A stretch of 64,000 bases of DNA. Origin: Octopus vulgaris (lineage: Eukaryota). Positions 10,109 through 13,509 of the stretch are shown here, piece after piece. The stretch spans positions 115,196,001-115,260,000 of the forward strand of contig OX597818.1 of the NCBI GenBank assembly GCA_951406725.2. Direction: 5' to 3'. The notes beneath the pieces were generated by a model. The model was not told the DNA's origin, searched no databases, and saw only the letters and a program-made list of their open reading frames with translations. Position 1 is the first letter of the stretch, and every line of letters begins with the position of its first letter. A program made the position numbers and the translations under genes.

Positions 10109-10146
<38 letters not shown>

Positions 10147-10297
10147 AATATAAGAGAGTGGTCACTATATTGCTCACTCTAGCACCAGTTAATCCAAAAG
10201 GTTTCAACCACGAAAATACATGCTTACCATGAAAGTCAGTACGATTGTTAGCTCACACGGACAGGGCAAATAAAAAATAACAAAAATACAGATTATT

Positions 10298-10375
10298 TTG
10301 GGACAATTGTTTCGCTATTAATGAATTAAATGTAATTTTACTTACAAAAAAATCCATTTGTAGCTCGTCAGCCAA
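10298..10375 (-). ncRNA. Type I hammerhead ribozyme (predicted), inverted copy
   Basis: Reverse complement of the same motif in the left arm of the array. Confidence 0.83.
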
Positions 10376-11278
10376 GACTATCTGGATGAAATCCACTCAA
10401 TCACACGCCAGATTTTACCATAACGATAAATACGCGTGTGGTTCAATTGATTACATCCGACGTTATAATTCAAATGCCCCAACCAACAGCGCGCCAAACT
10501 TTCACGGAAAACAAATACAGCATTTAGAAATAAATGCAGCATAATTATAATTAATTAATAAGGGTGAGAGAATTAGATACTAATTTAATAGTATATTTAT
10601 TCAACACCAAGTGGCCTAGTGCTTCGAGAAACCTGGATTATTATAATATTTTATAACATATTATAATATTTTTACAAAATAAATATAAGAGAGTGGTCAC
10701 TATATTGCTCACTCTAGCACCAGTTAATCCAAAAGGTTTCAACCACGAAAATACATGCTTACCATGAAAGTCAGTACGATTGTTTTTCACACGGACAGGG
10801 CAAATAAAAAATAACAAAAATACAGATTATTATTTTTGTTATTTTTTATTTGCCCTGTCCGTGTGAGCTAACAATCGTACTGACTTTCATGGTAAGCATG
10901 TATTTTCGTGGTTGAAACCTTTTGGATTAACTGGTGCTAGAGTGAGCAATATAGTGACCACTCTCTTATATTTATTTTGTAAAAATATTATAATATGTTA
11001 TAAAATATTATAATAATCCAGGTTTCTCGAAGCACTAGGCCACTTGGTGTTGAATAAATATACTATTAAATTAGTATCTAATTCTCTCACCCTTATTAAT
11101 TAATTATAATTATGCTGCATTTATTTCTAAATGCTGTATTTGTTTTCCGTGAAAGTTTGGCGCGCTGTTGGTTGGGGCATTTGAATTATAACGTCGGATG
11201 TAATCAATTGAACCACACGCGTATTTATCGTTATGGTAAAATCTGGCGTGTGATTGAGTGGATTTCATCCAGATAGTC

Positions 11279-11357
11279 TTGGCTGACGAGCTACAAATGG
11301 ATTTTTTTTGTAAGTAAAATTACATTTAATTCATTAATAGCGAAACAATTGTCCCAA
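11279..11357 (+). ncRNA. Type I hammerhead ribozyme (predicted)
   Basis: ttgg-CTGACGA-gcta-[44 nt loop]-tagc-GAAA-caattg-TC-ccaa: intact core, stems I and II, palindromic short stem III; predicted cleavage after 11353. Confidence 0.85.
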
Positions 11358-11815
11358 AATAATCTGTATTTTTGTTATTTTTTTATTTGCCCTGTCCGTG
11401 TGAGCTAACAATCGTACTGACTTTCATGGTAAGCATGTATTTTCGTGGTTGAAACCTTTTGGATTAACTGGTGCTAGAGTGAGCAATATAGTGACCACTC
11501 TCTTATATTTATTTTGTAAAAATATTATAATATGTTATAAAATATTATAATAATCCAGGTTTCTCGAAGCACTAGGCCACTTGGTGTTGAATAAATATAC
11601 TATTAAATTAGTATCTAATTCTCTCACCCTTATTAATTAATTATAATTATGCTGCATTTATTTCTAAATGCTGTATTTGTTTTCCGTGAAAGTTTGGCGC
11701 GCTGTTGGTTGGGGCATTTGAATTATAACGTCGGATGTAATCAATTGAACCACACGCGTATTTATCGTTATGGTAAAATCTGGCGTGTGATTGAGTGGAT
11801 TTCATCCAGATAGTC

Positions 11816-11894
11816 TTGGCTGACGAGCTACAAATGGATTTTTTTTGTAAGTAAAATTACATTTAATTCATTAATAGCGAAACAATTGTCCCAA
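11816..11894 (+). ncRNA. Type I hammerhead ribozyme (predicted), second tandem copy
   Basis: Same motif as 11279-11357; predicted cleavage after 11890. Confidence 0.85.
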
Positions 11895-12172
11895 AATAAT
11901 CTGTATTTTTGTTATTTTTTATTTGCCCTGTCCGTGTGAGCTAACAATCGTACTGACTTTCATGGTAAGCATGTATTTTCGTGGTTGAAACCTTTTGGAT
12001 TAACTGGTGCTAGAGTGAGCAATATAGTGACCACTCTCTTATATTTATTTTGTAAAAATATTATAATATGTTATAAAATATTATAATAATCCAGGTTTCT
12101 CGAAGCACTAGGCCACTTGGTGTTGAATAAATATACTATTAAATTAGTATCTAATTCTCTCACCCTTATTAA

Positions 12173-12203
<31 letters not shown>

Positions 12204-12242
12204 GGTGAGAAAGTTGGTGTGTGAAAGCACGTGGTTGGATAT

Positions 12243-12658
12243 ATAGTAAAAAGTGAAAAAACTACAGAAGGCTTGTTTTATAAGGTTAAAGAATATATTT
12301 GAGTCATTATGTTGGAAGAATGTTATAAAATTTTTTCATACAGTAACATAGTTTTTGAGAAATTACCGGTTTCGTGTTAACTTTTCAAATTTCTCAAGTG
12401 TCTCTCAAGGTAACTACATCGTGTTATGTCTTCGTTATGAAGTGCAAAGAAGAGTTCTTTGCACTTCATAACGAAGATATAACACGATGTAGGTAAAGAC
12501 ACTTGAGAAATTTGAAAAGTTAACACGAAACCGGTAATTTCTCCTAAAACTATGTTACTGTATGAAAAAATTTTATAACATTCTTCCAACATAATGACTC
12601 AAATATATTCTTTAACCTTATAAAACAAGCCTTCTGTAGTTTTTTCACTTTTTACTAT
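12243..12658. repeat. Near-perfect fold-back element (arms about 205 bp) in (TA)n, with minimal hammerheads
   Basis: Arms 12243-12451 and 12455-12658 with a 3-nt loop (gag); flanked by TA tracts. Confidence 0.9.
12505..12543 (+). ncRNA. Minimal type I hammerhead with U3-A8 variant core (predicted); mirror copy at 12357-12395 on minus
   Basis: gagaaat-TTGAAAA-gt-taac-ac-GAAA-ccgg-TA-atttctc: perfect 7-bp stem I, 2-bp stem II, palindromic ACCGGT stem III. Confidence 0.7.
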
Positions 12659-13509
12659 TTTCTATATATATATATATATATACATATATATATACGTGTG
12701 TGTGTGTGTGTGTGTGTGTACGTGCGTGCGTGCGTGTCTGTGCTTGTCACCACAACAATCGCTTGGCAACCGATATTGGTATGCTTACGTCCCCGCATCT
12801 TAGCGGCCCAGCAAAAGAGACCAACAGAATAAGTACTAGGCTTACAAAGAATAAGTCCTGAGGTCGATTTGTTCGACTAAAGGCGGTGCTCCAGCATGAC
12901 TGCAGTCAAAAATGACTGAAACAAGTAAAAAAGAAAAAAAAAACTCAAGTGTGTTTAGATATCGTTATTTTTCTTGTTACTAACTTGGCCACAAATTTTA
13001 GCGAAGAATACTGGATAACTGTTTCGATCCCACTTCTTGGCTGCTATTTTATTTTATATCAACTCTACAAGAAGGATACTTAAACTCCTCTACTAATTCG
13101 ATATAGTGGAATGCCGAAAGACACTTTATCCGTTAACTGATGTTCTAACGGTCCTGTCACTTCACTGAAAGACCGATTGGCTCTAGTTTACTTTAGAAAA
13201 AATATTCTACGAACCAAACGAGAACGTTACATCTGCTGTGTTGGTTTTTAGCGGTGAAAATAATTATCTTGTTTCAAGCGATATGCTATTTTTTAATGGC
13301 AGCAATTAGATGATTAAAATAACTAGTGCACCAGTGCTTCAATAATATTTATCTTAATTAAATGCATTGAAAATTATTATAGACTAAAACGAAAACATAT
13401 GTGATTTGCTAATGATCATTGAAAATATATAAATAACAGGAAACTGATGTCCGTTTAAAATACAAGGAAGAGAGATATTGCTGAGTGTTACATTTAATCT
13501 TGGGGTAAA

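Follow-up and report, generated by a model that had tools for sequence, protein, structure and literature searches.

The window analysed here, a stretch of 64,000 nucleotides of the Octopus vulgaris genome (contig OX597818.1), contains between positions 10111 and 12203 an inverted array made of two arms of a 537-nt repeat (Table 1). Units were numbered from the base following the predicted GUC cleavage site (nt 1), with window positions 11354-11890 as the reference unit. In this numbering, the minus-strand arm starts at unit nt 5 and the plus-strand arm at nt 14, and both run outward into (TA)n, in agreement with the first-pass annotation of this sequence. A spacer of 8 nt interrupts the otherwise perfect palindrome at the junction, and the T at 10831 is common to both arms. 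At 10783-10787, 45 nt from the palindrome centre, arm A differs by a change of 3-4 bases from all other units of the locus, possibly through mutation or misassembly. The array is a recent copy, one of hundreds, of a hammerhead repeat of the non-LTR retrozyme type.

Table 1. Features of the inverted array and of the adjoining insertion (positions in the window).
Feature	Position	Strand	Remarks
Left (TA)n target tract	10111..10140		
Arm A, 691 nt, unit nt 5-537 then 1-162	10141..10831	-	3' end = fixed site A (nt 162)
Intact type I hammerhead within arm A	10289..10384	-	Predicted cut between 10302 and 10301
Inversion junction, 8-nt spacer and one shared T	10823..10831		
Arm B, 1351 nt, unit nt 14 past two further GUC sites to nt 292	10831..12181	+	3' end = fixed site B
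Type I hammerhead of arm B, core at 11283, palindromic 2-bp stem III	11270..11366	+	Predicted cut after 11353
Full 537-nt unit from one cut site to the next	11354..11890	+	No stop-free frame >69 codons
Second hammerhead in arm B	11807..11903	+	Predicted cut after 11890
'Tail' of 130 nt separating start sites A and B	12052..12181	+	At this end only
Right (TA)n target tract	12178..12203		Shared with the neighbouring Penelope-type insertion
Second inverted insertion, terminal repeat of an RT+GIY-YIG Penelope-type family	12204-12660		Shares the right TA tract

Each unit presents the anatomy of a hammerhead, with a CUGAnGA + GAAA core, a 2-bp helix III with a palindromic loop and a long insertion in helix II. 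The core is invariant across 125 distinct natural units except at N7 (37) and U4 (10). In an alignment of 17 sequences, including relatives of about 70% identity, 94% of the cells are paired and two-sided changes occur at 6 of 13 pairs. Anatomy and covariation thus identify a real type I hammerhead, for which self-cleavage is predicted. An Rfam search gave no hammerhead match at gathering or E-value thresholds and only hairpin look-alikes of the palindrome, probably because of the long helix II insertion. Folded as a circle, the unit reaches -138.8 kcal/mol, compared with -104.0 +/- 5.6 for 15 shuffled versions. It lacks any long reading frame (longest stop-free frame of 69 codons, in a region of about 32% GC); no RT or GIY-YIG endonuclease ORF was found within the 537 nt, and the element is therefore non-autonomous. 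A splice-donor-like hexamer at 11310-11315 (unit nt 494-499) lies in hammerhead helix II and is invariant in 17/17 aligned relatives. Contigs of one sequencing run leave the unit just before this hexamer and continue into unrelated sequence; two contig tails leaving near the donor-like site had no exact match in this genome. Older retrozyme subfamilies, about 70% identical (L169-L195, L064:7095-7330), show compensatory changes in helix I and the same two end sites, and homologous motifs mark their outer ends.

Exact matches in the genome amount to 1,182 for an internal 26-mer, 834 for the B-end junction and 432 for the A-end junction. The copies are 88-100% alike, dispersed and recently mobile, and they end at TA junctions; as read from these ends, the LTR/PBS/PPT organisation appears to be absent from them. 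Four sets of loci were mapped, taken from the best matches, from the first internal matches and from the matches to the B end and to the A end. Of the 185 loci in all, 122 are inverted, all head-to-head, and 63 have one arm of at least 25 nt. The first 40 loci are the best matches, biased to long arms, and the permutation of round classes was stratified accordingly. Set aside before counting were L152 and L154, the same insertion as L109 (found three times with identical flanks), the overlapping extensions L098-L105 and, within L064, L106, L144 and L286, secondary fragments. Four arms in which the template jumps at short microhomologies from one unit position to another (L061:2737-3418, L123, L156 and L309) were kept in the end counts and left out of the haplotype and microhomology counts (118 loci). 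Locus L144 also carries a tandem duplication of its junction region.

The stronger result of this analysis concerns the outer ends, with their fixed A/B pairing, and not the junction at the ribozyme site. One arm ending at about nt 162 (site A) is paired with one ending at about nt 292 (site B) in 117 of the 122 inverted loci, and A/A or B/B pairs are absent (0 of 122); of the five others, four have a single irregular end and one is truncated in the retrieved sequence. The same pairing holds in 40/40 loci not chosen by an end. Sites A and B are 130 nt apart, so that each insertion carries a tail of this length at one end. The proposal of the first-pass annotation that each strand of a TA tract primed one of two cDNAs is supported: TA adjoins 242 of 244 arm 3' ends, all 122 loci are head-to-head, and in 43 of them neither arm could be a copy of the other, some arms having no overlap at all (L140, L142, L146). 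Single-arm copies end at either site. Tiny inverted stubs of the other end site are present on five apparent single-arm copies (L118, L119, L162, L038 and L071), which suggests that second priming occurred there too.

In L1 twin priming, two target-strand primers on one RNA lead to a head-to-head inversion joined by microhomology. The octopus insertions resemble this process in their inversion from two target-strand primers and in the microhomology at the join; they differ from it in that both starts are fixed and internal, poly(A) is absent, and the cDNAs pass each other's start site instead of stopping. Arm B continues past A in 96/122 loci and arm A past B in 60/122. An L1-type stop at the other primer was rejected as a candidate, with only 5/155 and 7/152 ends located there.

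The two arms of a locus carry one haplotype. No shared polymorphic site distinguishes them in 76 of the 85 loci that could be tested, nor in 17 of the 22 testable non-nested loci; arm-arm differences affect 9/1,521 sites within a locus, compared with 36% between loci, and 43 haplotypes were distinguished among 103 loci. Rare alleles are common to all units of both arms, successive rounds within an arm are discordant in 14/6,465 comparisons, and haplotype sharing extends to sub-unit inverted arms. Arms reach 15 units, those of 12-15 units being nearly or wholly invariant (one 15-unit arm has no substitutions), and array length is not linked to internal divergence (rho 0.00, n=104). Arm lengths follow a roughly constant drop-off of about 0.13% per nucleotide, with a mean of about 770 nt. 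In several long arrays, recurring alleles are confined to part of the units (L094, L112, L036, L046 and L053, the last with a period that is partly of four units), which may reflect multimeric circles or templates, or exchange after insertion; these mosaics show that some arrays are not pure copies of a monomer. The first-pass annotation had assumed a multimeric RNA template; a linear, cleaved multimer is less likely than a circular RNA.

Microhomology at the inversion joint (118 loci) is of 1-3 nt in 61 cases and at least 4 nt in 15, with none in 24 and inserts in 18. Near-symmetric junctions number 31 against 11.7 expected, about a quarter of the 122 loci, and this excess was replicated (13 vs 4.5). 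It is concentrated in class n=0, in which B, within the same pass, ends where A does (20 vs 4.9), with a modest one in class n=-1, in which A has come round the unit to B (6 vs 2.2, p=0.019); the other symmetric classes show none (5 vs 5.3). An excess in these two classes only is what collisions between the two RTs would be expected to give. The present locus falls in class n=+1, which is not enriched (3 vs 3.5) and for which a model of two RTs on a circle predicts no coupled stop. Local palindromic potential did not predict the symmetric centres (2.9 vs 3.1 bp), and symmetric junctions in the sample were not clustered at the ribozyme (11/31 in a 60-nt window, scan p=0.38). Release of both RTs after equal lengths was also considered and set aside (9 vs 5.1, p=0.06).

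The first-pass annotation had further proposed that both cDNAs stopped at the ribozyme-made 5' end, the inversion point being a genomic footprint of self-cleavage in vivo. When breakpoints were placed relative to the GUC over the 185 mapped loci, 5' ends occurred all along the unit (chi-square p=0.16 for bins of 20 nt), with 17/307 in nt 1-20 for 12.4 expected (p=0.12) and 5/105 for 4.4 expected in the last, independent locus set. Inversion joints in an independent sequencing run are also spread (2/30 ends in nt 1-20, for the 15 joints listed out of 30). The ribozyme site was read through in 468/485 passages, with no indel at the GUC in 376/377; at this locus it was crossed once by arm A and twice by arm B before they stopped. 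The spread breakpoints and the read-through refute the stop at the cut end as a general rule, and the inversion point is in general not set by the ribozyme. Only this locus among the 122 has both ends in nt 1-20. From the observed marginals, 0.33 such loci are expected by chance (probability of at least one, 0.28), and the coincidence of junction and ribozyme at this locus alone lies within chance.

A minority of copies may nevertheless record a ribozyme cut. In a genome-wide search for junctions with gapped patterns, the ends of matching loci being read by eye, both arms started near the ribozyme site at 12 loci. The 3/14 combination of ends was read at five of them and 2/1 at two; 1/4, 2/533 and 13/11 occur once each, an older relative has 1/13, and this locus has 5/14. 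At the present locus, a linear multimer with uncut internal ribozymes could have been the template, both cDNAs running off its ribozyme-made 5' end and being joined after small trimming. This scenario is in line with the position of both ends within nt 1-14 at 11 of the 12 loci, the crossing of the site by a single end out of 24, and the pile-up at nt 1-3; an end at nt 1-2 occurs in 5 of the 12 loci, an excess over a smooth null (p=0.005-0.02), and the blunt 2/1 and 1/4 joins are as expected if both cDNAs had run off at a cut 5' end. The sample of mapped loci adds 16 ends in nt 1-15 for 9.2 expected (p=0.027 uncorrected, one of eight windows tested). Against it, a control window yielded 9 loci, a number close to the 12 (p=0.66). 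The five 3/14 joins have a 6-nt microhomology, which makes them ambiguous and would favour this join anyway, and the control window too shows recurrence at palindromes; moreover, the repeated 2/1 and 3/14 joins may include duplicates of one event. Neither arm of this locus ends at nt 1-2, its junction corresponding to the recurrent 3/14 junction plus three extra bases, and about 98% of the copies would be left unexplained. Passages of PMC11167929 also describe the hammerhead as dispensable for insertion in vitro. We conclude that no more than about 1-2% of copies have a junction set by a ribozyme cut. For this locus, run-off at a cut end is a tentative explanation that we hold to be rather doubtful; the alternative is either a chance or a microhomology-favoured stop. 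The footprint idea therefore fails as a rule and may hold for a minority, as the 12 loci compared with 9 in the control and the excess at nt 1-2 allow.

Three further explanations address the arrays as a whole. The template might have been a long uncleaved linear transcript, with arrays grown and homogenised after insertion by unequal exchange and no circle involved. Dual priming would work equally well on such a multimer, some long arrays do carry mosaic and periodic alleles, and the bioRxiv preprint 10.64898/2026.07.22.740005 proposes that unequal crossover amplifies repeats locally. We regard this scenario as unlikely in view of the near-invariance of the longest arms and the independence of array length from divergence, to which are added the steady length drop-off, the haplotypes shared by sub-unit inverted arms, and the maintenance of the catalytic core with compensatory changes in the stems. 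Fold-back of one cDNA by self-priming, the hairpin then being resolved by the endonuclease at the second site to give an inverted arm and a tail, would account trivially for the shared haplotypes and for the 31 near-symmetric junctions (20 with A inside B), and self-priming with endonuclease resolution is suggested in passages of PMC3846280 and PMC8557442. It already fails as the sole mechanism at the 43 loci whose arms are not copies of each other; 91 of 122 junctions are asymmetric and single-arm copies end at either site, and we consider it a distinctly improbable account. That the palindrome is a long-read fold-back or an assembly artefact is very improbable indeed. The exact junction is uncovered in four public runs, where repeats are skipped and no empty target site was seen, and the base change near the centre of the palindrome is odd; these points are outweighed by unique flanks on both sides, by the 117 loci whose unequal arms have two different fixed ends, and by comparable inversion joints that the independent run shows at single-copy depth (15 of 30 joints listed).

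We thus favour, as probable, an insertion of a non-coding 537-nt retrozyme whose arms were produced by a Penelope-type RT/endonuclease cutting both strands of (TA)n, with one cDNA per site from a single, probably circular RNA. The observations behind this model are the pairing of one A with one B end, the TA targets, the single haplotype, the constant drop-off and the read-through of the GUC. The retrozyme repeat would be transcribed, and the transcript would self-cleave and be ligated into a monomer circle. A dimeric Penelope-type enzyme acting in trans would nick both strands of a TA tract, and one cDNA would be started at each of the AT-rich sites A and B of the same RNA. Both RTs would then proceed by rolling-circle synthesis with strand displacement, until the two cDNA 3' ends are joined by a short microhomology. 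Part of the symmetric junction class possibly derives from self-priming, which would not apply to the 43 non-nested loci. The full version of this scheme, in which a dimeric enzyme uses two fixed sites of one ribozyme-made circle for a double rolling circle, with junctions reflecting RT collision or, in 1-2%, a cut end, has in our view about equal chances of being right or wrong.

Animal non-LTR retrozymes (Cervera and de la Pena, 2020; PMC7229834) are described with units of 150-450 bp, shorter than the 537-nt unit found here. The octopus family resembles them, as presented in passages of PMC7229834 and bioRxiv 10.64898/2026.07.22.740005, in its non-coding AT-rich tandem unit, its dispersed dimers to multimers and its single type I hammerhead per unit with a short palindromic helix III. 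In the same passages, circle-templated cDNA synthesis and mobilisation by PLEs are hypotheses, and inverted insertions or fixed ends, described here from 185 junctions, do not appear. Endonuclease-bearing PLEs share with our family a 5'-truncated inverted head-to-head copy and a tail at one end, AT-rich or (TA)n targets, a hammerhead upstream of the start sites and two internal RT starts (passages of PMC8557442, PMC3846280, PMC11167929 and PMC4209133). A Penelope-type protein cuts and extends both strands in vitro, with two internal start sites that bound the tail (PMC11167929, in part), and hypotheses of self-priming and of a circular template are found in passages of PMC8557442, PMC3846280 and PMC4209133. 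The tail of these PLEs is of 30-40 bp at one end of the inverted copy according to the same three sources, compared with 130 nt here. Our family further differs from them, as they are portrayed there, in having no ORF, in arms that are multimers of up to 15 units and in a strict pairing with one tail per insertion, which in PLEs is an optional extension.

The neighbouring insertion also belongs to a Penelope-type family, for which Pfam support for RT and GIY-YIG is weak and below cut-off. In 9/9 inverted copies of this family, selected on the long end, that end is paired with a 39-nt shorter one. The neighbour itself has a 39-nt tail on one arm, a degenerate minimal hammerhead and a near-symmetric junction about 90 nt upstream of the putative cut. 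No autonomous element sharing the unit sequence was found among three PLE families (old, young and neighbour): the old and young families have short AT-rich matches only to the unit, and the neighbour, compared within the window alone, has no terminal sequence in common with it. The old family has the same helix III as the unit. The young family (L061:1-1602, L226-L255) presents stop-free RT and C-terminal endonuclease frames in copies mostly 92-99% alike, is (TA)n-associated and has its own ribozyme-like motif; it is a candidate source of the enzyme, though without sequence common to the unit.

The origin of the inverted ends and tail of PLEs is stated to be open in passages of PMC3846280 and PMC8557442, as is the role of retrozyme circles as templates of tandem insertions in those of PMC7229834 and bioRxiv 10.64898/2026.07.22.740005. 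Our literature search found no report of a strict A/B pairing or of a same-template test, and older reviews of PLE structure may describe the pairing qualitatively. The young octopus family offers hundreds of junctions that separate the models and point to two initiations per insertion, one per site, on one molecule, and its 537-nt unit is a short and defined RNA on which they could be tested in vitro. If the proposed mechanism is true, the tail and the inverted repeat of PLEs would be obligatory products of one mechanism, and each insertion would record the whole reaction.
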